This document shows positions 2,366 through 26,142 of a stretch of 33,402 nucleotides of DNA, in pieces; position 1 is the stretch's first letter; each line of letters opens with the position of its first letter. The stretch is taken from assembly GCA_040376695.1 (NCBI GenBank), contig JBEIQD010000001.1, positions 283,029 to 316,430 on the forward strand. The letters are read 5' to 3'. Below the pieces are notes generated by a model, which was not told the origin of the DNA, searched no databases, and saw only the letters and a list, made by a program, of their open reading frames with translations. The position numbers and the translations under genes were made by a program. This stretch comes from Candidatus Nomurabacteria bacterium (GTDB lineage Bacteria > Patescibacteriota > Minisyncoccia > Phycocordibacterales > UBA5272).

Positions 2366-2405
2366 GCTATTTTAATAGTTAGTATGCTAAGTATAGCACA
2401 AGCTG

Positions 2406-2492
2406 CGGAGGCGGAGAGATTCGAACTCTCGAACAGGTTACCCCGTTGCTACCTTTCCAAGGTAGTGCACTAGACCACTATGCGACGCTTCC
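2406..2492 (-). tRNA. tRNA-Ser(GGA)
   Basis: Reverse complement GGAAGCGTCGCATAGTGGTCTAGTGCACTACC-TTGGAAA-GGTAG...GAGAGTTCGAATCTCTCCGCCTCCG; long variable arm; CCA not encoded. Confidence 0.95.
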
Positions 2493-4472: not shown

Positions 4473-6230
4473 ATGTCAACTTCAACAGATTACCTATCCG
4501 CCAAGCGTCACAGCCTAGCCCACGTGCTCCTTATGGCCGTAAAGCACCATTACCCTCACGCCCTCCCTACTATTGGCCCTGTTATTGAAAATGGTTTCTA
4601 TTATGACTTCGATTTTGGAACATCTGGAAAGCCAGGGTTAGAGGATCTTGAGAAGATAGAAAAAACTATGCAGGAAGTCGTAGCGCAAAACCTAGCGTTT
4701 CGTCACGAAGAAGTCACAGCAGACCAAGCTCGAGGATATTTTGAAGTAAATCCTTACAAGAAAGAGCTCGTCGATGGACTTGAAAAAGATGGGAAAACTA
4801 TCACTCTCTACTACACGGGAGATGATTTCTTTGATCTTTGTGTCGGAGGCCACACAGAAACTACAGGCGAGATTGCTACTGGAAGTTTCAAATTAGATAA
4901 AATTGCTGGAGCTTACTGGCGAGGAGATGAAAAAAACGCAATGCTTACTCGTATCTACGGATTGGCATTCGACACAAAAGAAGAGCTTGACGCCTACCTA
5001 ATCCAACAAGAAGAAGCGAAGAAGCGAGATCACCGAATACTAGGTAAACAACTTAAACTTTTCACCTTTAGTGAGCTTGTTGGTCCTGGTCTTCCATTAT
5101 GGACTCCACGAGGAACGATTATCCGTGAAGAGCTTAATGATTTTGTGTGGTCACTACGAAAGAAGCAAGGTTTCCAAAAAGTAACAATCCCTCATATCAC
5201 CAAGAAAGATTTGTACGAGAAAAGTGGTCACTGGGCAAAATATGCCGAAGATCTTTTTAAGATTGATACTCGAGACGGTCATACGTTCTGCATGAAGCCG
5301 ATGAACTGCCCACATCACGCACAAATATATGCAAGTGAAATGAGATCATACAGAGAACTCCCTCTTCGATTTTCAGAAACTACGATGGTATACCGCGACG
5401 AACAGTCAGGTGAACTCTCTGGTCTTGCTCGTGTTCTTTCTATTACTCAGGATGATGCTCACGTATTTTGTCGAGAGTCACAAATAGAAGAAGAAGTTGG
5501 TAAAGTGTGGGATATTATTTCAACATTTTATAGCACATTTGGATTTACTCTTATTCCGCGATTCTCTAGACGAGACCCTGCAACTCCAGAAAAATTCATG
5601 GGGACGGAAGAAACATGGAACAAAGCAGAAGGGGCAATTAAAAATACACTTGAAGCACGAGGCTCCACTAATTGGATAGACGGTTTGGGGGAGGCCGCAT
5701 TTTACGGACCAAAGATAGACTTCATGGCGAAAGATTCTATTGGACGCACCTGGCAAGTTGCAACCATTCAGTTGGACTTCGTGCAGCCTTCAAACTTTGG
5801 ACTTGAATTTGTTAATGAAGAAGGGAAACGTGAACAACCTGTCATGATTCACTGTGCAATCATGGGTTCAATCGAACGATTTATGTCTACACTTATTGAA
5901 CATACAGCGGGTAACTTCCCTCTCTGGCTTTCACCTACTCAGATTTCTATTGTTCCAATTGCAGAAGCGCACCATGAATACGCAAAGAATGTACAAGCAA
6001 CACTTCAAGATGCTGACATCCGAGTAGAAGCTGATATCTCAAAAGAAGGACTCGGCAAGAAAATACGCGCAGCCCGAGAAATGAAAACTCCCTACTGGGC
6101 AGTAATTGGAGATGCTGAAATTGCGAATGGCACAGTAACACTTGAACATCGAACAGAAGGAAAGATTGGAGAAATAAAAATTGAAGAACTACTTTCAAAA
6201 CTGATAGAAGAAATAAAGAATAAGAAATAA
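4473..6230 (+). CDS. thrS: Threonine--tRNA ligase (no N-terminal TGS domain)
   Basis: RHSLAH and DLCVGGH editing motifs, AYWRGD, RDHR, KPMNCP, class II motifs, C-terminal anticodon-binding domain. Confidence 0.98.
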   Translation: MSTSTDYLSAKRHSLAHVLLMAVKHHYPHALPTIGPVIENGFYYDFDFGTSGKPGLEDLEKIEKTMQEVVAQNLAFRHEEVTADQARGYFEVNPYKKELVDGLEKDGKTITLYYTGDDFFDLCVGGHTETTGEIATGSFKLDKIAGAYWRGDEKNAMLTRIYGLAFDTKEELDAYLIQQEEAKKRDHRILGKQLKLFTFSELVGPGLPLWTPRGTIIREELNDFVWSLRKKQGFQKVTIPHITKKDLYEKSGHWAKYAEDLFKIDTRDGHTFCMKPMNCPHHAQIYASEMRSYRELPLRFSETTMVYRDEQSGELSGLARVLSITQDDAHVFCRESQIEEEVGKVWDIISTFYSTFGFTLIPRFSRRDPATPEKFMGTEETWNKAEGAIKNTLEARGSTNWIDGLGEAAFYGPKIDFMAKDSIGRTWQVATIQLDFVQPSNFGLEFVNEEGKREQPVMIHCAIMGSIERFMSTLIEHTAGNFPLWLSPTQISIVPIAEAHHEYAKNVQATLQDADIRVEADISKEGLGKKIRAAREMKTPYWAVIGDAEIANGTVTLEHRTEGKIGEIKIEELLSKLIEEIKNKK

Positions 6231-8270: not shown

Positions 8271-10382
<2,112 letters not shown>

Positions 10383-10530: not shown

Positions 10531-11031
10531 ATGTCTACTGAATACAATAGCTCTTTTGTCATCATGACCAACACCAAAGGAGAAATCCTCCTGAACCGAG
10601 ACGCCCGTGAGCACGAGCATGGCTTAGGCAAGCTCAACTACCCTGGCGGCGGCATAAGTATGGGTGAACACCCTGTCGAAGCAGCCGTAAGAGAAACAGG
10701 CGAAGAATCTGGGCGAGAAATCCTTGCACAGAATCTCACAATCGTGGGCATGTACACGATGCGGAAAAGTTACGGGATTGTGTTCCTGTATGCACATATG
10801 GAGCCAGTGGGTGAAGCACATCCACTGCACGAGTGCGACGAGGTTACTGAAAAGTGCTGGATACTGCCTGAGAAGGTCATCCAGCTGCCAGATACCGAAA
10901 TCTATCCGGCACAGCGCACACTCACACGCTACTACCTCCAGTGGTTACGCGATGGCCAGAAAAAGCAGGAAAGTGTTCAGTTCCTCTCGCCGCCTTTCGA
11001 AATTACAGGAAAGTATTTCGATGGTTTGTGA
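10531..11031 (+). CDS. Nudix hydrolase
   Basis: Nudix box GGISMGEHPVEAAVRETGEESG (GX5EX7REUXEEXG). Confidence 0.9.
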   Translation: MSTEYNSSFVIMTNTKGEILLNRDAREHEHGLGKLNYPGGGISMGEHPVEAAVRETGEESGREILAQNLTIVGMYTMRKSYGIVFLYAHMEPVGEAHPLHECDEVTEKCWILPEKVIQLPDTEIYPAQRTLTRYYLQWLRDGQKKQESVQFLSPPFEITGKYFDGL

Positions 11032-11048
11032 TTCAATTCATATCAAAC

Positions 11049-11079
11049 AAGAGCGCTATCGCAAGATCGCGCTCTTTTT
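11049..11079 (+). terminator. Intrinsic terminator
   Basis: AAGAGCGC(T)ATC-GCAA-GAT(C)GCGCTCTT followed by a T tract. Confidence 0.75.
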
Positions 11080-11114
11080 CTTTTCCTCTATTGTTTGTTA
11101 TGATGGAATACATT

Positions 11115-11816
11115 ATGCAAGCAGTCATTCTCGCAGCAGGTAAAGGGACCCGTCTTGCCCCTCTCACTGAACAGTTACCAAAGCCACTTATTCCTGTTTG
11201 CGGAACACCTATTCTTATTCGACTCCTAACCTCTCTCCCTGAGGAAATCACTGAAATTATTATTGTTGTTGGACACAAAGGAGACATCATTAGATCAACA
11301 ATTGGAGTATTGTATGGAAATAGAAACATTACATACGTAGAACAAGGTGCCATGCACGGAACATATGGAGCCCTACTCTCAGCAAAACCTTTTATAACCT
11401 CACCTCACTTTCTTGTTATGGGAGCAGACGATATCCAAGATAGAGAGGCCCTTAAAAAAATGACTCAGCAAGATCTTGCTTTCGGTGTACACAACAAAAT
11501 ACTTCCACAAAAAGAGTACCTTATCGTGGACATTCATGAAGACATTGTACGGGGGATGCGTCGACCGACAGAAATTGAATTTGAACAACCGCAACCAATG
11601 GCAACAGGTATTTATCTTTTTGATCAAACAATTTGGAACTATGAACCATCAGAATATAAAGATGGTGAATATGGAATTCCGCAAACTATTCGTCCAATGC
11701 TTCTAGACCATGATTTCAAAGCGATTGAAATGCCAGAGTGGGTTCAGATTAATTCTCACGAAGACTTAGCTTACGCTGAACAAGTACTTACGAACAACGC
11801 CTTACCTCTCCAATAA
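11115..11816 (+). CDS. Sugar-phosphate nucleotidyltransferase (NTP_transferase family)
   Basis: MQAVILAAGKGTRLAPLT..LPKPL motif; start moved to ATG 11115. Confidence 0.9.
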   Translation: MQAVILAAGKGTRLAPLTEQLPKPLIPVCGTPILIRLLTSLPEEITEIIIVVGHKGDIIRSTIGVLYGNRNITYVEQGAMHGTYGALLSAKPFITSPHFLVMGADDIQDREALKKMTQQDLAFGVHNKILPQKEYLIVDIHEDIVRGMRRPTEIEFEQPQPMATGIYLFDQTIWNYEPSEYKDGEYGIPQTIRPMLLDHDFKAIEMPEWVQINSHEDLAYAEQVLTNNALPLQ

Positions 11817-12271
11817 TTCATAAACGTCTCTGTGTCACACCTACGATACTGCCCACGTTCCTTGTCAGTAGATTCTGGCTCATGATAAATAATCATTCCG
11901 TCTTCATATCCAACAACAACAAGCATGTGAAAACGCTTTTGTTCAAGAACTCTTTTTTCTACTGAAACAATAACAGGATTTCCTTTTTCTAGAAAACTCA
12001 TAATTTCATTAAGATCCGTAAGCCCCTCTTTTCTTTCTGCCTGAAGACCATATTCTTTTGCTTTGTTGACTAAATAATCATGCATCCAACCATTTGTCAT
12101 ATCGTATCCACCTGCATCTTTTGCTTCATTACAAAAATCTATGATGCTAGGAATTTTTACTCCATGAAATGTAGCGACCATGGCAAAGCTCACCGCTCCA
12201 CACCCTCTCAACATCCAAAATGGATCCGCTATATCAACAAACTGTGAGTAATATGGAACAGTAAGTTTCAT
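11771..12271 (-). CDS. C39-like (papain-fold) peptidase
   Basis: VPYYSQ, GCGAVSFAM (catalytic Cys), NPVIVS, HMLVVVGY (His), YHEP. Start at 12271, 1 nt after the pheT stop; no signal peptide. Confidence 0.85.
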   Translation of the reverse strand: MKLTVPYYSQFVDIADPFWMLRGCGAVSFAMVATFHGVKIPSIIDFCNEAKDAGGYDMTNGWMHDYLVNKAKEYGLQAERKEGLTDLNEIMSFLEKGNPVIVSVEKRVLEQKRFHMLVVVGYEDGMIIYHEPESTDKERGQYRRCDTETFMNYWRGKALFVSTCSA

Positions 12272-12272
12272 A

Positions 12273-14612
12273 TTAGCGAACTTCATATCCCTTTTCTTTT
12301 AAAAGTCTGTACATCCTATCTGCGACTTCATTTGCTTCTACGTCAGTGAGTGTTCGATCTTTAGCTTGAAGTACAAAACGAAAGGCATACGAAGTTTTTT
12401 GTACACCCTCTATCTCTTTCGTAAAGGTGTCAAAGCAATCAATACGAACAACAAGAGGAGAATCAACTTGTAGAGCGAGAACGTGGATACTATCCCATGA
12501 TGTTGAAGCAGGAGTCCACACAGCAATATCACGAACAATGAACGGATAAGGAGAGACTGCTTCGTATAGAACAGAATCTGTGCGCGGTGTAAGAGGTTCA
12601 TACGAAGTTGGTTCAGGTAGTGTATCAATGAGCGCATCAAAATCAAGCTCAATGATATATGGTTTCGCTTGCACTGTTTCACACTCAAGATTTGAAACCC
12701 CCAGATCACGTTTAATCTGTGAAAGTATCATGTCCACCTCATCATTAAAAGAAGATTTCTTTTTACCGTCATCAATAACGAGAGCTAAGTGTCTACGTTC
12801 ACTATTTGTGGTAAAAATATTTCCAAACTCATACATCTTCACTGTTTGAATATGTAAGAGCGGAGCGTTTAACATGTTCATCTGGAATGCTTTATTAATT
12901 CCAATACTTAAACTATGTCGTAACTTTTCTTTATCTGTTGCTAACCCTTTCACAATCTCCACTTCACCTACATCTCCAAATGAATACGTCATAATTTCTG
13001 AAAATCCATTCGCATTAAGAATATTCTTAATTTTATTTTCATAATACAGACGCTTATGAGGAAGCCCGGTTCTCTTTAATTGTGGCAATACACCTTTAAT
13101 TGAAGAGAGTCCTTGTATGCGAGCAACTTCTTCGATGAGGTCTTCCTTGATGCGAATATCAAGACGGTCATGTGGAACAGTTACAAAGAATCTAACCTCA
13201 TCTACGTCAATCATGCGAGCGTATAAAACCCCGTTCTTAAAATTTTTAGAACTTGCAATTTCTTCTGTAATTATTTTTCCAGACCCTTGAGAAATGTGAG
13301 TAACGCTGCCATTCCCAACATATAAACCAACATGATCTATACCTTGCTCTACCTTTGTGCCAGGCAAAAACCCAACTGACTCATATCGAATTTTTCCTTC
13401 ACCGGTATTTGAAAACACCAAATCTCCCCATACTGGTTCTGTTATTTTTTCTCCATATACATATTTATCGATTGAGATACTTGGTTGCCAAATACCTGAA
13501 AAGATAAAGCTCATAAGTGACGAACAAGAGAAGTGAGCAGGAGCGTCTTCTCGCATACTGGACGGATTTTTATATGTTGCACCTTCGGCCGCTAATAGTT
13601 TTTCTTCAATTATTTCTCGTGTTGTCGCTTTCCTCACACCAAAACCAAGACGAGAAAATACACCCTCTATTTCTTTGTCTCCATACGAAGTTCCAAGAAA
13701 TCCATTAACTTCTCGCACCGAAACAGAAACCACATACTCCCATGACTTTCTATTCCAAACATCAATAATTTCACCAACAGCAGCTTTTGGATTTAGTTTT
13801 TTAATTAGTGCAATTGTCATACGAAGACCCTCCTCAACAAGAGTATCGCTTATCTCATTTTCAAAACGCTTTGACGCATCAGTTCGCAGACCATACTTCT
13901 GAGAAGTTTTTCTAATAAGCGTTGGGTTAAAATTTGCCGATTCAAGAATAATAGAAGTGGTGGAAGAACTAATACCAGAAAACTTTCCTCCTTTAATACC
14001 AGCAAGCCCAAGCGGCTTCTCAGTGTCTGAAATAACAAGCGTTGAACTGTCGAGTGTGAGCTCTTTATCATCAAGAGTTGTAAGGGTTTCACCTGCTTGA
14101 GCAAAGCGTGCCACAAGAGTATTTCCTCCAATTAAAGCCGCGTCGTACGCGTGCATTGGCTTATTGAGTGAGAACTGAACGTAATTAGTGATATCTACGA
14201 TTGAATTAATACTCTTTTGTCCTATTGCTTGAAGTTTATCCTTTAGCCAAACTGGAGATTCTGTAACTTCTACACCATCAATACGCACACTCATAAAACG
14301 AGAACAAGCCTGTATGTCTTCTGTAATAATTACAGGAGCAATGACATCACTTGAAACCTTGCCTTTCCAGTATTCATGCGGATCAATAAAGGTATTCCCA
14401 ACGAGAGCTACTATGTCCTTACCCATCCCTCTATGCCCTAGTGCGTCGTGAGCTCTGTTTGGGAGCACTTTAATGTCTAAAATAGTGTCATCACCAAATG
14501 TGCTAGTCTCTTCTATTTCAAACGCATTAAATGTAACAATCTCCTCAAGTTTTTCTACGGGAGGAAATGGTTCTTTACTATATTCTTGCAACCAGTGTAG
14601 TGAAAATTTCAT
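12273..14612 (-). CDS. pheT: Phenylalanine--tRNA ligase beta subunit, lacking the B2 OB domain, with an NlpC/P60 domain inserted in B5
   Basis: MKFSLHWL, LPNRAHDAL, B3/4 motifs (IVDITNYV, LAGIKGG, LESANF, TDASKRFE), B5 RLDIRIKEDLIEEVARI, C-terminal FDX-ACB (YPFIVRDIAV, DRTLTD). Confidence 0.96.
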   Translation of the reverse strand: MKFSLHWLQEYSKEPFPPVEKLEEIVTFNAFEIEETSTFGDDTILDIKVLPNRAHDALGHRGMGKDIVALVGNTFIDPHEYWKGKVSSDVIAPVIITEDIQACSRFMSVRIDGVEVTESPVWLKDKLQAIGQKSINSIVDITNYVQFSLNKPMHAYDAALIGGNTLVARFAQAGETLTTLDDKELTLDSSTLVISDTEKPLGLAGIKGGKFSGISSSTTSIILESANFNPTLIRKTSQKYGLRTDASKRFENEISDTLVEEGLRMTIALIKKLNPKAAVGEIIDVWNRKSWEYVVSVSVREVNGFLGTSYGDKEIEGVFSRLGFGVRKATTREIIEEKLLAAEGATYKNPSSMREDAPAHFSCSSLMSFIFSGIWQPSISIDKYVYGEKITEPVWGDLVFSNTGEGKIRYESVGFLPGTKVEQGIDHVGLYVGNGSVTHISQGSGKIITEEIASSKNFKNGVLYARMIDVDEVRFFVTVPHDRLDIRIKEDLIEEVARIQGLSSIKGVLPQLKRTGLPHKRLYYENKIKNILNANGFSEIMTYSFGDVGEVEIVKGLATDKEKLRHSLSIGINKAFQMNMLNAPLLHIQTVKMYEFGNIFTTNSERRHLALVIDDGKKKSSFNDEVDMILSQIKRDLGVSNLECETVQAKPYIIELDFDALIDTLPEPTSYEPLTPRTDSVLYEAVSPYPFIVRDIAVWTPASTSWDSIHVLALQVDSPLVVRIDCFDTFTKEIEGVQKTSYAFRFVLQAKDRTLTDVEANEVADRMYRLLKEKGYEVR
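13206..13628 (-). other. NlpC/P60 (C40) domain inserted in-frame in PheT (about aa 329-469)
   Basis: GATY...FSCSSL (Cys363), GDLVF, DHVGLYVGNGSVTH (His427, His439), terminal ARMI. Confidence 0.85.
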
Positions 14613-14614
14613 AG

Positions 14615-15400
14615 TTATTTAAGATAAAGATTAAGAACACCTTCAGTATTAATAATCTCTTTCAATTTACTATAAGGGATCACTACCTGCTGAGGTCCTG
14701 CAACATATGGTGCCACCTGATACTCATCAAAATAAATTACTAGACCATCTTTTGTAGGAAGCACTCTCGAAAAATTTTCTTTAGTGGGCGCTGTGCCTTC
14801 ACGCACCATCTCTTCGTTATAAATATACTCCGTATCCCCCTGTTTTAATTGCGCCTTTAAATCTTCCTTCGATAACGTAGAGAGTACTGCCGCGTAATCA
14901 GCACCTTGCTTGAAAAGATCTGGTACTGTAACTAACTTTTTATGTTGATAGTCATAGACATACGTATCTATGGTATGAAATGGGTGTGCTGCACCACGAA
15001 GATACCACTCCATTCCCATAAAAATAGAAACATACCTCTCATTTTGTTCTTCAGTTGAAGGACTACCTGTTACAGCGCTGTGTACCTCTTTTGGAATATC
15101 TAGCTCTGCATTTGTACTGTCTACGGCATCTTTTTCAAATTCTGCAATTTTCTCATCTATACGCTTCTTCAAACTTTCATTCGTTTGTTTAATTTCTTGA
15201 GTAGCGCCTGGAATAACAGGATAGGTAACCTCAACAGTTAAAACATCTGTATTTTTTTCTATCTTTTCCACCTGAACAGGAGTCTCAACAATTGGTTGAG
15301 AAACTTGTGGTGAAGTTTTAGTAAACTGACTATATACCAAAGCAATTACAAAAATTGTAAGAAGTCCGATAATGGTAAATTGTGTTTTTCGACTATTCAT
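14615..15400 (-). CDS. Membrane-anchored DUF3298/DUF4163 (RsiV/PdaC-like) protein
   Basis: N-terminal TM helix, VTYPVI, GAAHP, DLF, GLVIYFDEYQVAPYVAG..VVIPY; start moved to ATG 15400. Confidence 0.85.
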   Translation of the reverse strand: MNSRKTQFTIIGLLTIFVIALVYSQFTKTSPQVSQPIVETPVQVEKIEKNTDVLTVEVTYPVIPGATQEIKQTNESLKKRIDEKIAEFEKDAVDSTNAELDIPKEVHSAVTGSPSTEEQNERYVSIFMGMEWYLRGAAHPFHTIDTYVYDYQHKKLVTVPDLFKQGADYAAVLSTLSKEDLKAQLKQGDTEYIYNEEMVREGTAPTKENFSRVLPTKDGLVIYFDEYQVAPYVAGPQQVVIPYSKLKEIINTEGVLNLYLK

Positions 15401-15404
15401 ATGT

Positions 15405-16217
15405 TTAGAATTGATTGACAACACGAAGATCACCGTTATAAAGCATACGAATATCATCTATGCCCGTCTGAAGCATTACGAGGCGATCAAGTCCTCCACC
15501 AAATGCGAACCCTTGGTACTCGCGTGGATTAAGACCAGCGTTTTGCAACACGTTAGGATGGATCATTCCAGCTCCCATAATTTCTATCCAACCCGATGAA
15601 GAACACAAAGAGCAGTGTCCGTCTCCAGAATCCCCTGTTCCAGAACACTTGAAACACTGCATATCAACTTCTACACTAGGTTCAGTAAATGGAAAGAACG
15701 AAGAACGAAAACGTACAGCAACTTCTTTTTCTAGGAACTCGCTAAAATAGTGCTCAAGCACACCCTTCAGATTTGCGAGCGTTACGTCTTTCCCAACCAT
15801 TAACCCTTCAACTTGAAAAAACTGAGCTTCATGTCGTGCATCTGTTGCTTCACTACGAAATACTTTTCCAGGAACAATTACAGCTATTGGAAATTCTTTC
15901 CCTTCTTTTATCCAGCGCTCAATAGTTCTTACTTGTACTCCAGAAGTATGAGTACGGAGTACGTGTCCAAGAGGTAATCCTTTCGCTAGTACTTTTTGTT
16001 CAGATACCGTAAGATGACGACCTTCGATTGTGTCACTCTTAATCCAAAACGTATCTTGCATGTCTCGTGACGGATGATCTCGTGGGACATTAAGCGCGTC
16101 AAAGTTGTACCATTCACTTTCAAGCTCTGGACCATCCACCACATCAAATCCAATTGAGGTAAATATACGCGAAACTTTATCAATCGCTTTAGTTATTGGG
16201 TGAAAATGACCATTCAT
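15405..16217 (-). CDS. pheS: Phenylalanine--tRNA ligase alpha subunit (no N-terminal coiled coil)
   Basis: GHFHPI, NFDALN..DHPSRDMQDTF, LRTHTS, FFPFTEPS, CxxC...CxxC insert, GFAFGGGLDRL; start moved to ATG 16217. Confidence 0.97.
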   Translation of the reverse strand: MNGHFHPITKAIDKVSRIFTSIGFDVVDGPELESEWYNFDALNVPRDHPSRDMQDTFWIKSDTIEGRHLTVSEQKVLAKGLPLGHVLRTHTSGVQVRTIERWIKEGKEFPIAVIVPGKVFRSEATDARHEAQFFQVEGLMVGKDVTLANLKGVLEHYFSEFLEKEVAVRFRSSFFPFTEPSVEVDMQCFKCSGTGDSGDGHCSLCSSSGWIEIMGAGMIHPNVLQNAGLNPREYQGFAFGGGLDRLVMLQTGIDDIRMLYNGDLRVVNQF

Positions 16218-16249
16218 ACCTTCTATTCTATCACAAAAGAAGACCCTGA

Positions 16250-17512
16250 CTATTTCTTGGTGTCTTGTAGAATCCACTCATTCTTCTGCTTGAAAAAAGT
16301 ATCAAACACAGCACGTCCAAGATAGAGCGGAACGAAGAATGGGTAGAGTATGAAAAATACCGGGAAGTTTCTAAAAAATTGCTGTCGATCATCTGTAAGC
16401 GTGTTACTAATGTACAGAACAAGAAGGAACATGGTGAGCATAACCATCACAATAAACGACATAACGTTAGTATTAAAGTAGAAAATATCAAATGTTGGAA
16501 TTTGAAAATGAATACCTACCGTAAGCCAGCGCTCAACTAATTGAGCAATCTGTTTTGCTGAAGTATATACAGCGAAGAGTGCTGCATAGAGACCATAAAA
16601 AACAAACATAAACGCCATTGGCAGTGTGAACATTCCAAAGTTTCCATATTCTTTCTTGAAAAAGAGCTCCCTATAATCTAGTGCATTCTCAAGAAAACCT
16701 CGTGCCCAACGAAGACGCTGATAAAAGAAACCTACTGCAGTAGATGGTCCAACGGTATACACAAGCGCCTTGTGTGAGTTGGCAATTTTAAGATGTGCCT
16801 TGTGCATGCGGAGCGTAATTTCAAAGTCTTCTGTGTTGTGAGCCTTATGATAATTACCAATCTTTTCAAACACTTCTTTTTTGAAAATAGAAAATGGACC
16901 AGGTGTTACTTGAATAGCATCCAGTGACCCGAAAGCTTTTCGAACGAATACCCCCATCAGATACTCAACAGCCTGCATACGCTGTACGAATGTTTTAGGA
17001 CGTCTAATATGAATACACGGAGTAACTGCCATGATTTCAGGATCTCTATCAAAATAAGAAATAATCGTCTTGAGTGTATGAGGGGCAACGAATGAATCAG
17101 CGTCTAAGCATCCGAAGAAATCTGACGTAGAACGCTCAAGCGCTAAGTTTACAGCAGTATGTTTACCTCCGTTTTCTTTTGAGATTGCAGTGATAAGCCC
17201 TGGATACTTTGTGGCGTATTCTTGTGCAATTGCATACGTGTTATCTTTACTTCCGTCATCAACCACCATGATCGAAAGCTTATCTTTTGGATAATCAAGC
17301 GCAAGTAGTGAATCAAGTGTTGCGGGGAGCGTTCTCTCTTCATTCCAACAAGGAATAGCGACGGCCACGCTGGGGAAATGTTCTAATTTATGATATTCCT
17401 CTTCGTCAAATTTCTTTTTGTTTTCAAAAAAAGAAATAAGCAAAAGCACTTGAAAAAACATTGAGAGAAACAAGAACGGATACATGAGCGCAGACAGAAT
17501 TTGCTCGAGCAT
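16250..17512 (-). CDS. Processive GT2 glycosyltransferase (PgaC/IcaA/CesA-like)
   Basis: DDGS, GGK, DAD, TED and QRLRW motifs plus TM helices. Confidence 0.9.
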   Translation of the reverse strand: MLEQILSALMYPFLFLSMFFQVLLLISFFENKKKFDEEEYHKLEHFPSVAVAIPCWNEERTLPATLDSLLALDYPKDKLSIMVVDDGSKDNTYAIAQEYATKYPGLITAISKENGGKHTAVNLALERSTSDFFGCLDADSFVAPHTLKTIISYFDRDPEIMAVTPCIHIRRPKTFVQRMQAVEYLMGVFVRKAFGSLDAIQVTPGPFSIFKKEVFEKIGNYHKAHNTEDFEITLRMHKAHLKIANSHKALVYTVGPSTAVGFFYQRLRWARGFLENALDYRELFFKKEYGNFGMFTLPMAFMFVFYGLYAALFAVYTSAKQIAQLVERWLTVGIHFQIPTFDIFYFNTNVMSFIVMVMLTMFLLVLYISNTLTDDRQQFFRNFPVFFILYPFFVPLYLGRAVFDTFFKQKNEWILQDTKK

Positions 17513-18231: not shown

Positions 18232-18307
18232 TGGAGCCACTTCTCAGGCTCGAACTGAGGACCTACGGTTTACAAAACCGTTGCTCTACCAACTGAGCTA
18301 AAGTGGC
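18232..18307 (-). tRNA. tRNA-Thr(TGT)
   Basis: GCCACTTTAGCTCAGTTGGTAGAGCAACGGT-TTTGTAA-ACCGTAGGTCCTCAGTTCGAGCCTGAGAAGTGGCTCCA. Confidence 0.97.
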
Positions 18308-20213: not shown

Positions 20214-21182
20214 TTACTCATCTCCCGCGTCGCCAAACTCCCCTGTAAAGTTCTGCAAAGCATCTACAATAGGCTCCATACTTCCTTCCATAATCTTTGG
20301 GAGTCCGTGCCATGACTGTCCAATTCTATGATCAGTTACGCGGTCTTGTGGAAAGTTGTAGGTACGAATCTTTTCTGATCTGTCCCCTGTTCCGACTTGA
20401 GATTTCTTTTCAGACGCATGCTTTCTATCGTCTTCTTCTTGAGCTAGTTGGTCTAATTTTGCTTGGAGCATTTCAAGTGCACGCTCTTTGTTCTTCAGCT
20501 GAGAACGTTCAATCGTACAACGAATAGCAATACCTGTTGGCTTATGAATAACACGCACAGCTGTTTCCACTTTGTTCACGTTCTGTCCTCCTGCTCCACC
20601 TGAACGAGATGTTTCAAACTCTAAATCTGACGGCGGAATAGTTACTTTTGTATTGGTTCGTAACGGCATCACCGAAACAGTCACCGTTGAAGTATGTACA
20701 CGTCCGTTCTTTTCAGTTTCAGGAATTCTCTGTACGCGATGAACACCAGTTTCAAAACGAAGGGCATCATAAGCATCCTTACCTTTAATCTCAAATGACA
20801 CATCCTTGTACCCTCCAACATCAGATACTGATTCATCAAGTTTGTTCCAACCCCAGCCACGAGTTTCAACATAGTTCTGATACATAAGTGCGAGCTCAGC
20901 AGCAAACAAAGATGATTCATCTCCCCCTGCTCCACCTTGAATTTCAAGAATCATAGCTTTAGGCTTTGCTTCTTCTTCCTTTGCAGCTTCTGCTGTGTCT
21001 TCCATTTGCTTCCACAGCGCCTCTAGTTGAGGTGTAAGCGTTGCCAGCTCAGCTTCTGCTAATTCACGCAAACTTTCATCTGCAAGAAGAGCTTCGGCTT
21101 CTTCTTTAGTAGCAGAAAGGCGCTCATATTCTTGAGCAGTATACATTGTGCGTGGATTTGATTTGAAATCGTCGAGAGTCAT
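20214..21182 (-). CDS. prfA: Peptide chain release factor 1
   Basis: [12 protein letters not shown] (PxT), [30 protein letters not shown]. Confidence 0.96.
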
Positions 21183-21557: not shown

Positions 21558-22913
21558 CTATCTCTGAAGCTTATCAATATCCTCCTGAGTTGCGTACATT
21601 TTCTTCATTACGGCGTTTCCGTACCCTGCTCCAGCAGTTGAAGCTGAACAAGCTCTTCCAGAATAGTACTTACATGCAGCATTTCTTTCTGACGCCTCAT
21701 TCCCTGAAACTGCACCTAAATCTTGCAAATACATAGCCATAGCAGTGATAGCATGATATGGATTCCAAGGATTAGCTACGGCAGCTCCTGTTGAGTTCTC
21801 AATTCTTTTTTCAAAAATCTTCCATGTAGAAGGAATAAACTGTGAAGGACCCATGGCCCCACCCCACCCCGTTGGACTTCCTCCGCTGTACATTGCTATC
21901 CAACATGATACAGGTGTTGTATCTGGATCACGCCCAAGACGAGAAGTAAGAGCAAGGAATGGTGGCACGTCTCGAGTTGGACTCATCGTACGAAGCTTCT
22001 CTGCACCAGTTTTAATTGAAATACCAGCCCCTGTATTAGTGTCACGCAGATAGCATGCTCCAACATTAGTTCCCAAAGAAGACTCCTGCATAAGAATCGC
22101 TAACATAAGTGCAGGACGAACCCCTGTTGTTTTGCTTGCAGCAAGTGCAAAATCATACGCCTGTCCGAAAGAAATAGCACTTGTGTCTCGAAGCTCAAAA
22201 AGTCTAGACCTGATTTGAGCTGCTTCTTTTTCACGAGCCGCAAGAACTTTCTTGTACTCTGTTTCTTGATTTTTAGTTTGAGTAAGGAGATTGTTCTTTT
22301 CTTTTTGGTTACTCTCTACTTTTTTTCTCTCAGATTCTTGAGCAAGTTTTTTCTGTGTCTCTTCATCTTTTGCTGTTTCTAGTTCAGATTTTACTTCCTC
22401 AAGCTCATTTTGTGTCGCACGAATATCGGAAAAACTCTGGTTAAGCGCGCGGTTAAGCGTAGAAAAAGAATCTACATCCGAAAAAAAAGTAGAGAGTGAC
22501 TGTGCCTGAAGCCCAAAATCAAGAAGAGAGTATTGTTCTAAGTATCGAGTCTTTCTCATGATTTGAGCAAGTGAATCTTTTTCACGTTCCATCTTTGCAT
22601 CAAGCGTATTAATATTTCTATTTTTCTCAGTAATGTTCTGATTTAATTTTGAAATAGCGGCATCATGAGCTTTTATCTTTAACTTACTTTGATTAATCTT
22701 TTGTGTAAGCAAAGTAATATCTTTTGCCAAAGAGTTTTTCTGAGCTTGTGTTTGTGTAATACTTCCATTGAGCGCCTTAATTTGAGCCTCCAAATCAATA
22801 AGCTCCTGCTCTAACTGTTCACGAGACTGTTGCGCAACAGCTGGTGTTGAATCAATAAACACTATGCCTAAACATACTGTGACAACAATAAAAAATGCCG
22901 TGAGACTTCTCAT
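21558..22913 (-). CDS. Secreted coiled-coil protein with C-terminal lytic transglycosylase (SLT_2/MltB-like) domain
   Basis: Signal peptide, CwlO/EnvC-like coiled coil, MQESSLG (catalytic Glu), GGAMGPSQFIPSTW. Confidence 0.85.
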   Translation of the reverse strand: MRSLTAFFIVVTVCLGIVFIDSTPAVAQQSREQLEQELIDLEAQIKALNGSITQTQAQKNSLAKDITLLTQKINQSKLKIKAHDAAISKLNQNITEKNRNINTLDAKMEREKDSLAQIMRKTRYLEQYSLLDFGLQAQSLSTFFSDVDSFSTLNRALNQSFSDIRATQNELEEVKSELETAKDEETQKKLAQESERKKVESNQKEKNNLLTQTKNQETEYKKVLAAREKEAAQIRSRLFELRDTSAISFGQAYDFALAASKTTGVRPALMLAILMQESSLGTNVGACYLRDTNTGAGISIKTGAEKLRTMSPTRDVPPFLALTSRLGRDPDTTPVSCWIAMYSGGSPTGWGGAMGPSQFIPSTWKIFEKRIENSTGAAVANPWNPYHAITAMAMYLQDLGAVSGNEASERNAACKYYSGRACSASTAGAGYGNAVMKKMYATQEDIDKLQR

Positions 22914-24789: not shown

Positions 24790-26142
24790 CTACATACCAG
24801 TCCTCAGTACAAGAACTCTAAATGTTTTAACCATGATAATAAAATCAAGGAGAAGTGACCTGTTCTTCACATAGTACAAATCATACTGGAGTCTCACTTT
24901 TGTTTCTTCGAGAGAATTCGGCGGCAACTCTTGGTTAACCTGAGCCCACCCAGAAAGTCCTGGTACGATTGTGTAGCGCATCATGTAATATGGAATCTCT
25001 GCAGAAAGTTTCCCTCCATTAGCTAAAATATCTGACCGTGGCCCAACTAAAGAAACATCCCCAATCAGTACATTAATAAGCTGAGGAAACTCGTCCAGTC
25101 GACTCTTGCGTAGAAATGCCCCAACTCGCGTAACTTTATTATTTTTATTTTGTGTAACCCATTCACCTTCATCCGTAAAATCCATGGTACGAATTTTATA
25201 TATATTTACAATCTTTCCTCCACGTCCATAGCGTTTCTGGATACTGAGAAGTGGGCCTTTGTCATCTAGCTTAATTGCCAAATAAATAAACGGAACAAAT
25301 GGTGTATAGAGAAGTAGAACAGGGAGAGCAACCGCAATGTCGATAATACGTTTTGCTGCTTCGTACGCCTGAATATTCAAGTGGACAGATTCAAAAAACC
25401 AAAAATGTCCAATTCCTCTCATGGGCATTTTCTTTAAAACATCCTGGTACACAAGTGCTGCATCAAACACGTGGATCTTCCGCTGAGCAGCTAAATTATA
25501 AAGATATGGTAGTAATTCGCTCACCCGCTCATCACGAATATCAACAACTACTTGGGAAATTCCATTGCGCTCCAATATAGATTTAAGTTGAGTAAGTGTA
25601 TTACCAGAAGCACTATCTTTGAGTGTTACATTTAAATGATCAGCAATATAAAAAGGATAAAATGAATGACTGTTTACTGTTTGCTTTAATTCTTCGTACT
25701 CATCCCCTTCTGCAATTAAAAGTGTCTTAGCGCGGGTGGCGGGATTTAAAACCGAAGGAACAATAAATACTCTCCAAAGAATTGCGAGAACAATATGTAT
25801 AGCTGTATAGAGAACTAGAACAGTCTTTGGGGTAAGTTCTGTAATAGAAGCGAAGAGATAGAAATATCCAAACCCAAGAAGTGCGACAAAAATATGAATA
25901 TTAATAATTCTTGAAAGTTGCTTTAATTTTGTTTGAAATACAGAGAAGTCATAAAAATCAAAACTATAATACATAATCACGAGAATTGCATAAATCGGCA
26001 CAAACAGCTGCGTGTGGATGGTAAGACGCTCGCTTGGCGGAGTATCAAAAAAACGAAGCGTAAGAGCGAGGAAGAGGGCGAGGCTTGCAATAATGGTATC
26101 CCCTGCAAAAAGGGCGACTTGTTTTGACTTAAGTTTCAGCAT
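24790..26142 (-). CDS. Polyprenyl-phosphate glycosylphosphotransferase (WcaJ/WbaP-like)
   Basis: N-terminal TM helices, KRIIDI, KIRTM, TRVGAFLRKSRLDEFPQ, SLVGPR, PGLSGWAQV, DLYYV. Confidence 0.92.
   Translation of the reverse strand: MLKLKSKQVALFAGDTIIASLALFLALTLRFFDTPPSERLTIHTQLFVPIYAILVIMYYSFDFYDFSVFQTKLKQLSRIINIHIFVALLGFGYFYLFASITELTPKTVLVLYTAIHIVLAILWRVFIVPSVLNPATRAKTLLIAEGDEYEELKQTVNSHSFYPFYIADHLNVTLKDSASGNTLTQLKSILERNGISQVVVDIRDERVSELLPYLYNLAAQRKIHVFDAALVYQDVLKKMPMRGIGHFWFFESVHLNIQAYEAAKRIIDIAVALPVLLLYTPFVPFIYLAIKLDDKGPLLSIQKRYGRGGKIVNIYKIRTMDFTDEGEWVTQNKNNKVTRVGAFLRKSRLDEFPQLINVLIGDVSLVGPRSDILANGGKLSAEIPYYMMRYTIVPGLSGWAQVNQELPPNSLEETKVRLQYDLYYVKNRSLLLDFIIMVKTFRVLVLRTGM

Follow-up and report, generated by a model that had tools for sequence, protein, structure and literature searches.

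The window analyzed here is a 33,402-nucleotide stretch of a Candidatus Nomurabacteria genome (Patescibacteriota; Minisyncoccia; Phycocordibacterales; UBA5272), taken from contig JBEIQD010000001.1 of assembly GCA_040376695.1 (positions 283,029–316,430). It encodes both subunits of phenylalanyl-tRNA synthetase (PheRS) in the order pheS, a gene for a PdaC/DUF3298 membrane protein, pheT, and a gene for a C39-like peptidase (Table 1). Read from its first ATG, the C39-like gene shares 14 nt with the 3′ end of pheT; its second ATG is 1 nt past the pheT stop codon. The source genome (688 kb, 13 contigs, 100% complete) has a single pheT, whose product, PheT, has the domains B3_4, B5, catalytic-like module (CLM), and FDX-ACB; pheS lies nearby. 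The original prediction, made by reading the window, was that this PheRS β subunit is an in-frame chimera in which an NlpC/P60 cysteine peptidase domain with a complete Cys-His-His triad interrupts B5. That architecture was borne out, and we regard it as virtually certain that an NlpC/P60 domain is nested in the B5 hairpin of PheT.

Pfam matched the insert to NLPC_P60 (PF00877) at residues 358–454, with 26.6 bits for the whole protein and 32.8 bits for the insert alone (cut-off 23). This is the only PF00877 match in the genome and, as anticipated in the original prediction, B5 is split around it. By alignment, the insertion point lies between residues 435 and 441 of the Thermus thermophilus PheRS β subunit, at a site where insert-less relatives have 0–4 residues and this PheT has 140. 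An AlphaFold2 (AF2) model of the whole PheT, built from a 63-row alignment, had a predicted local distance difference test score (pLDDT) of 89.1, with values of 90–97 in the blocks of the insert. The insert modeled alone (13 rows) gave a pLDDT of 92.1 and a predicted template-modeling (TM) score of 0.87. When this model was compared with the PDB using Foldseek, 51 matches were obtained at E ≤ 1e-3; those listed all belong to the NlpC/P60 family, and nearly all are cell-wall endopeptidases (Acd24020, RipB, Spr/MepS, CwlO, and LytE). The best was Acd24020 (7cfl; E = 5.4e-8, TM 0.70), which was also the best PDB match by sequence (E = 2e-6). The model and these matches indicate a papain-like α+β fold, a fold in which the Cys belongs to an N-terminal helix and the His residues to a β-sheet, and the NlpC/P60 match is far beyond chance. 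There was no sign of the permuted residue order of LRAT-type proteins, as Cys363 precedes His427 and PF04970 scored 13.9–15.2 bits against a cut-off of 24.3.

The motifs recognized in the original prediction are all in place: RLGFGV at residues 321–326, GATY at 344–347, FSCSSL at 361–366 (with Cys363), GDLVF at 396–400, HVGLYVGNG at 427–435 (with His427), the second histidine at 439, and FFVTVPHDRLDIRIKEDLIEE at 475–495. The 63-row alignment comprises the window PheT and 62 near-full-length homologs chosen from 120 listed of 207 matches, and its sequences are 40–90% identical to the window PheT. Cys363, His427, and His439 are invariant in all 63, as they are in the smaller alignment of the insert (13/13) and in eight stand-alone forms described below. 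Y347, D426, and about 15 further positions of the insert are likewise invariant across the 63 PheTs, so the catalytic residues are not freely lost among homologs; one distant PheT (L053) has Asp in place of His439. The mean pairwise identity is 0.57 for the insert and 0.52–0.70 for the canonical PheT domains. Thus the insert is a real, folded domain that is under purifying selection and has kept its Cys-His-His triad. It is likely an active hydrolase. LysM, SH3b, and PG_binding domains were not found by Pfam in PheT or in the stand-alone proteins, and, in agreement with the cytoplasmic location assumed in the original prediction, no obvious signal peptide was evident by eye at the N termini of PheT, the stand-alone proteins, or the C39-like protein.

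The host protein otherwise keeps its editing-site and structural motifs. Residues T142, N143, H154, and E224 of the B3/4 domain align to T249, N250, H261, and E334 of T. thermophilus, which we take to be the PheRS editing-site residues, and they are identical in 30 of 30 PheTs, whether or not these carry the insert. The insert therefore does not replace a lost editing site, and we rejected the NlpC/P60 domain as a substitute for one. The acidic B5 motif downstream of the insert is preserved, as had been noted: R483 and D485 are invariant in the 63-row alignment, and E490, D491, E494, and E495 are invariant or nearly so. PheT lacks the B2 (tRNA_bind) domain, as residue 39 aligns to T. thermophilus residue 150 in the PDB alignment. 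Its score against the bacterial pheT equivalog model TIGR00472 (384.2 bits; cut-off 402.65) falls short, as would be expected with B2 missing and B5 interrupted. PheS exceeds the cut-off of TIGR00468 (293.6 bits), with a match that begins at profile position 67. The synthetase is thus trimmed on both subunits, PheT being without B2 and PheS without its N-terminal coiled coil.

The junctions do not depend on a single assembly. Contigs from two other studies cover positions 11771–14612 and 11945–14612 of the window with 55 and 35 differences, respectively, and no gaps; they bridge both junctions without indels, which excludes an assembly artifact and settles the concern about the junctions raised in the original prediction. 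No insert-less form of the locus occurs in these other-strain contigs. Relative to the 98%-identical strain (40 of the 55 differences listed), there are six synonymous and three conservative non-synonymous changes in the insert, 12 and five in the rest of pheT, and nine and five in the C39-like gene.

The insert was matched in 13 of 41 close relatives (9/24 of the genus and 3/16 of other families), where the PheT reading frames are 785–841 aa long, or 699 aa where a contig end cuts the gene. Among 401 genomes drawn from the order, 102 had a match (E ≤ 1e-8), 92 of them in open reading frames (ORFs) of 682–888 aa. A draw of 401 genomes from the phylum gave only two matches within the window's own order, the source genome and G025, and two more in PheTs of other families (G306, 942 aa; G105, 955 aa), which have a divergent NlpC/P60 domain at the same hairpin with C/H/H and C/H/D triads. 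The original prediction had warned that the architecture might already be present in databases. It is: public protein collections contain it in 207 clusters (90% identity) and 230 representatives (50% identity). Their names, all assigned automatically, are of the kind "phenylalanyl-tRNA synthetase beta subunit," "beta subunit-related protein," or "C40 family peptidase." Full-text literature searches (with supplements outside their scope) returned no description of an aminoacyl-tRNA synthetase (aaRS) with a nested papain-fold peptidase, and we know of none. Two database proteins, P0174 (534 aa) and P0205 (530 aa), start at the B5–NlpC/P60 unit and run through CLM and FDX-ACB; either gene fragments or PheTs reduced at the N terminus would look like this.

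The distribution is patchy at short range. The genus includes 15 insert-less PheTs of 638–672 aa with a turn of 0–4 residues at the site, and the two PheTs nearest to that of the window by their flanks (G005 and G021, 75–76% identity) are both insert-less. A maximum-likelihood tree of PheTs was built with the insert columns removed, using 28 of 30 rows; the two rows dropped were L035 (G013, gene split on two contigs) and L043 (G030, a fragment). The insert state requires eight changes on this tree, at least six of which are forced by well-supported branches. Three insert-bearing PheTs of other families (G040, G037, and G025) branch outside the genus clade, beside the insert-less outgroup G033. 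The flank topology is not rejected by the insert alignment (approximately unbiased [AU] test, p = 0.226). Insert identity and flank identity correlate at only 0.67. On the topology result, the simplest history is that the insert was inherited along with PheT and then lost repeatedly and precisely; recombination between alleles is a possible alternative. No other PF00877 protein exceeded the cut-off in any of 28 insert-less relatives, and a free NlpC/P60 protein complementing the insert-less PheTs was therefore rejected. In a few relatives there is an additional short ORF of NlpC/P60 type (156–227 aa, mostly below the cut-off; G001:C2:6119–6352, G020:C111:10465–10806, G040:C11:38665–38970, and G036:C12:38738–39040). 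G036 has a single-chain PheRS, and its short ORF might be a divergent stand-alone module.

Eight genomes encode the module as a separate protein of 202–251 aa (403 aa in one case) that aligns to about residues 285–498 of PheT and consists of the NlpC/P60 domain flanked by the two halves of B5. An insert-bearing PheT is the ancestor of these proteins, B5 being a PheT domain. The acidic B5 motif has degenerated in them, and B5 is probably a mere structural frame there. Five of the eight (202–242 aa) are in family f210 (loci L045–L047, L050, and L051; genomes G798, G582, G488, G651, and G708). A B3_4 domain was found in none of these five genomes, which are 98–100% complete. Their PheRS is a single chain of 382–405 aa (ORFs of 382–413 aa) with tRNA-synt_2d and FDX-ACB domains, and it scores just below the cut-offs of the models for pheS_mito and for "PheS-related mystery ligase SrmL." The architecture is that of mitochondrial PheRS; G027, G036, and G038 also belong to this group. 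The module gene directly follows the single-chain PheRS gene in f210. G529 and G773, in family f251, combine an insert-less PheT of 657 and 663 aa, respectively, with a module encoded at another place in the genome, between genes for MraY-like GT4, CAP, and VanW/PG_binding_4 or DUF218 proteins. Eight clusters of stand-alone proteins (206–252 aa) exist in public databases; any that have a name are called "hypothetical protein." In family f180, PheT is shortened to about 417–445 aa (G699, G566, G458, G637, G747, and G791, among the matches listed). The G699 protein (L054:2671–3921) aligns only to B1, B5, CLM, and FDX-ACB and is without the B3/4 editing domain.

The gene downstream of pheT encodes a second cysteine peptidase of papain-like type. 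It matches Peptidase_C39_2 (PF13529) with 46.4 bits (cut-off 24) and is the only such match in the genome; Q15, C29, and H120 are shared by all 10 sequences compared. Immediately downstream of pheT, 8 of 13 insert-bearing loci have a C39-like gene, versus 0 of 15 insert-less loci. In the order-wide draw, a C39-like match was found in 63 of 102 genomes with the module versus 23 of 299 without it, counts that ignore shared ancestry. It is on the same strand and downstream of the insert in 60 of the 102, mostly at 0.9–1.1 kb, just past pheT. Among the 23 C39-bearing, module-less genomes, the relation to pheT could be read for 15, with 150 of 358 matches listed; the gene adjoins pheT in two of these (G699 and G728) and does not in 13. 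At least three proteins (L049, P0167, and P0189) contain the module and a C39-like domain in one polypeptide. The C39-like protein gave nothing significant against the PDB by sequence (best E = 0.73), matched no family in NCBIfam, and fell only into generic C39-like clusters in a protein atlas. A complex prediction for residues 283–502 of PheT with the C39-like protein scored 0.00, which counts neither way for binding. On balance, a functional pairing of the insert with the C39-like protein seems probable.

The retained triad, the dispensability of the insert, its survival as a detached protein, and the second papain-fold partner fit a thiol amidase that works independently of PheRS. We therefore favor, at a probability of roughly 55%, the reading that the insert is an accessory cytoplasmic cysteine amidase, independent of aminoacylation and often acting with a C39-like partner. 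A catalytically competent NlpC/P60 (C40) amidase/peptidase would sit in a surface hairpin of B5, and the B5-framed unit would be an accessory module, with PheT mainly providing a scaffold and ensuring that the module is expressed. The module would act in the cytoplasm, often with the C39-like peptidase encoded directly downstream. Its likeliest substrate would be a γ-D-glutamyl-type or other unusual peptide amide, such as those of peptidoglycan stem peptides or wall precursors. A cell-wall peptide is suggested by the nearest structures, which are cell-wall endopeptidases, and by the detached copies among envelope genes, and the genome does encode peptidoglycan synthesis (three penicillin-binding proteins, MraY, and Mur ligases). 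That the substrate is derived from the cell wall is, we stress, a tentative proposal, one we think somewhat less probable than its converse. The search for the Mur-ligase middle domain found two ORFs where four are usual; search sensitivity or a reduced precursor pathway may explain the difference.

Several observations weigh against this reading. LdcA (PF02016) and an AmpD-type amidase (PF01510) were not found in the source genome, so canonical muropeptide recycling is not evident. The insert is dispensable, being absent from the nearest PheTs, with at least six changes of state and no replacement NlpC/P60 protein in 28 insert-less relatives. The position of the f210 module right behind the PheRS gene would be compatible with a physical link to PheRS. 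As to the partner, a C39-like match is missing from 39 of the 102 genomes with the module, the insert-less and editing-less PheT of G699 still has a C39-like gene downstream, and a phylogenetically paired test of insert against C39 had only six pairs, about three of them in the same direction and none in the opposite one (p about 0.25).

Compared with known systems, this is a canonical NlpC/P60 domain in an unprecedented host, and its evolutionary record marks it as an independent functional unit. It shares with canonical DL-endopeptidases (Clostridioides difficile Acd24020, 7cfl; Mycobacterium tuberculosis RipB, 3pbi; Escherichia coli Spr/MepS, 2k1g and 8xud; Bacillus subtilis CwlO/LytE) the fold (Foldseek TM 0.58–0.71, normalized to the query), the Cys-His-His order, and the motifs F-[SD]-C-S-S and D-H-V-G-x-Y-x-G, at a sequence identity of 16–25%. 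Unlike them, it is nested in an essential cytoplasmic aaRS, is without a signal peptide, lipobox, LysM, or SH3b domain, and is longer by about 14 residues in the stretch that connects the GDLVF strand to the His strand, with more in some relatives. B. subtilis YkfC is a cytoplasmic NlpC/P60 enzyme of murein-peptide catabolism and, like the insert, a papain-fold amidase without an export signal (the YkfC-like 3h41 is at Foldseek rank 30). However, YkfC-type proteins have SH3b domains and are encoded in operons with genes for an LD-carboxypeptidase, an epimerase, and peptide transporters, whereas here neither LdcA nor an AmpD-type amidase was found and the genomic partner is a C39-like peptidase. 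The bifunctional glutathionylspermidine synthetase/amidase joins a CHAP amidase to a ligase and provides a precedent for one chain that contains both a cytoplasmic amidase of the NlpC/P60 clan and an ATP-dependent ligase. There, the N-terminal amidase hydrolyzes the ligase's own product; here, the domain is nested in a non-catalytic β subunit, and the evidence points away from coupling. The editing domains of aaRSs (CP1 of Leu/Ile/ValRS, INS of ProRS, and B3/4 of PheRS) are also hydrolytic domains inserted in a synthetase, but they have folds other than the papain one, occur universally or across whole clades, and take aminoacyl-tRNA as substrate, whereas this insert is patchy, dispensable, and also found detached. 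The C39-like protein resembles Peptidase_C39_2 members in its score over the cut-off and in its conserved Gln, Cys, and His, but unlike C39 systems it has no ABC-transporter fusion and no identifiable leader-peptide substrate.

The alternative that survives best, although we consider it unlikely, is that the chemistry is coupled to the synthetase, with the papain-fold domain on B5 acting on a product or ligand of PheRS. This could be additional editing of mischarged tRNA-Phe, passage of Phe through a thioester to a peptide or wall acceptor, or destruction of an adenylate-mimic inhibitor. In its favor, the NlpC/P60 superfamily includes acyltransferases. Insertion is always at the same B5 hairpin, even in the distant PheTs of other families, and the stand-alone forms keep both B5 halves and directly follow the single-chain PheRS gene in the five f210 genomes. 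B5 is reported to contact the B3/4 helices and the α (A) subunit of PheRS (PMC12449066). These points have to be set against the intact editing residues in all 30 PheTs, which leave nothing lost to replace, and against G529 and G773, where the module is unlinked from pheST, lies among envelope genes, and coexists with an insert-less PheT. The degeneration of the acidic B5 motif in stand-alone forms also suggests that B5 is only a frame there, and the order of Cys before His is the canonical one and not that of permuted LRAT proteins, whose Pfam model stayed below its cut-off.

A more specific version, slightly less probable again, is that the B5–NlpC/P60 unit and its C39-like partner form a PheRS-docked thiol enzyme that acts on a PheRS-bound ligand. 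The B5 halves retained in the stand-alone forms would then be the piece that docks on PheRS. One possibility is that Phe is taken from Phe-AMP or Phe-tRNA as a thioester and passed to a peptide or cell-wall precursor, which would make the module the equivalent of a Fem or L/F transferase, but with a papain fold and embedded in an aaRS. Another is hydrolysis of aminoacyl-adenylate-mimic inhibitors as built-in self-protection. As the module survives apart where PheT lacks the insert or is gone, the evidence argues against a requirement for PheRS in cis. None of the four functions put forward in the original prediction (muropeptide recycling, Phe transfer, self-processing, and moonlighting at the surface) is shown by our analysis.

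The last of these, in which the protein would leave the cell, either through lysis or along an unconventional route, to cut the bacterium's own wall or that of a host cell, we judge improbable. The closest structures are indeed secreted autolysins, the insert is the only PF00877 domain in the genome, and detached modules lie among envelope genes. However, PheT, the stand-alone proteins, and the C39-like partner are without a signal peptide (by eye) or a wall-binding domain (by Pfam), an essential cytoplasmic enzyme is an unlikely vehicle, and insert-less relatives manage without any NlpC/P60 protein.

A shade less credible still is the idea that the insert has no catalytic function and rides along, inert or decaying, in a loop that tolerates it. 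Its repeated loss among close relatives and the want of a replacement NlpC/P60 protein in insert-less ones would fit such a passenger, but invariance of the triad and about 17 more positions in 63 sequences would not, nor would the predominance of synonymous changes between strains or the keeping of the module as a separate gene after the loss of PheT. Very unlikely is a selfish or mobile element, spreading in an intein-like manner or by recombination through B5 arms, in which case horizontal gain, in place of loss, would explain the patchiness. The junctions are precise, the B5 arms of stand-alone copies could recombine, the PheT tree requires the insert state to change at least six times, and the insert–flank correlation is only 0.67. 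Against this, the insert data do not reject the flank topology, the insert-bearing PheTs of G040, G037, and G025 branch outside the genus clade next to insert-less G033, and the contigs of other strains show no insert-less form. Moreover, no intein, Hint, or homing-endonuclease domain was detected in PheT (Pfam, E ≤ 1), and the NlpC/P60 fold accounts for the whole insert. An assembly or binning chimera has next to no probability, the locus being spanned without gaps by contigs of two other studies and the arrangement recurring in 207 protein clusters and in 102 of the 401 genomes sampled from the order.

The arrangement is present in about a quarter of the genomes sampled from a large order of ultra-small bacteria. 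These genomes also provide a natural dissection of the protein: single-chain lineages dropped B1, B3/4, and CLM yet kept the B5–NlpC/P60 unit, a minimal construct of 200 aa. Its retention after the reduction of PheRS points to an activity of its own on which selection can act. Should the substrate be a wall peptide, the module would represent a new cytoplasmic route of peptide scavenging in organisms unable to make building blocks; if its activity is coupled to PheRS, it would represent a new kind of aaRS chemistry. The score below the equivalog cut-off and names of the "C40 family peptidase" type mean that automated reconstructions can miss an essential pheT or miscount wall hydrolases.

Table 1. 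Features of the pheST locus and neighboring genes, in window coordinates
Feature	Position	Strand	Basis
pheT, PheRS β subunit, 779 aa	12273–14612	-	ORF and translation, Pfam
B3_4 editing domain, aa 102–273	13794–14309	-	Pfam, E = 4.6e-57
B5 N-terminal half, aa 285–328	13629–13760	-	Pfam B5 in two stretches; alignment with insert-less relatives
Inserted NlpC/P60 (C40) cysteine peptidase domain, aa 329–470, 142 residues	13203–13628	-	PF00877, AF2, Foldseek
Cys363 codon (motif FSCSS), putative catalytic residue	13524–13526	-	Alignment conservation
His427 codon (motif DHVG)	13332–13334	-	Alignment conservation
His439 codon, third triad residue	13296–13298	-	Alignment conservation
B5 C-terminal half with acidic motif, aa 471–502	13107–13202	-	Pfam B5 at 470–501
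CLM (tRNA_synthFbeta), aa 505–646	12675–13100	-	Pfam
FDX-ACB anticodon-binding domain, aa 687–779	12276–12554	-	Pfam
C39-like (Peptidase_C39_2) cysteine peptidase, 171 aa (166 aa from second ATG)	11771–12286	-	PF13529
PdaC/DUF3298 (RsiV-like) membrane-anchored protein, between pheS and pheT	14615–15457	-	Pfam; NCBIfam RsiV below cut-off
pheS, PheRS α subunit, short, without N-terminal coiled coil	15405–16277	-	PF01409, E = 1.7e-90
tRNA-Ser(GGA)	2405–2492		
thrS (window neighbor)	4473–6230		
gyrB (window neighbor)	8271–10346		
NUDIX gene and nucleotidyl-transferase gene (window neighbors)	10531–11816		
GT2 glycosyltransferase (window neighbor)	16250–17512		
tRNA-Thr(TGT)	18232–18307		
Release factor (window neighbor)	20214–21182		
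SLT_2-like transglycosylase (window neighbor)	21558–22913		
Sugar transferase (window neighbor)	24790–26142		

The surroundings of the locus are ordinary housekeeping and envelope genes. The PdaC/DUF3298 protein encoded between pheS and pheT resembles the lysozyme-sensing anti-sigma factor RsiV (65 bits, below the cut-off). Homologs of its gene lie upstream of pheT in six relatives, both insert-bearing and insert-less; it was rejected as an insert-linked gene, being found beside both forms of pheT.

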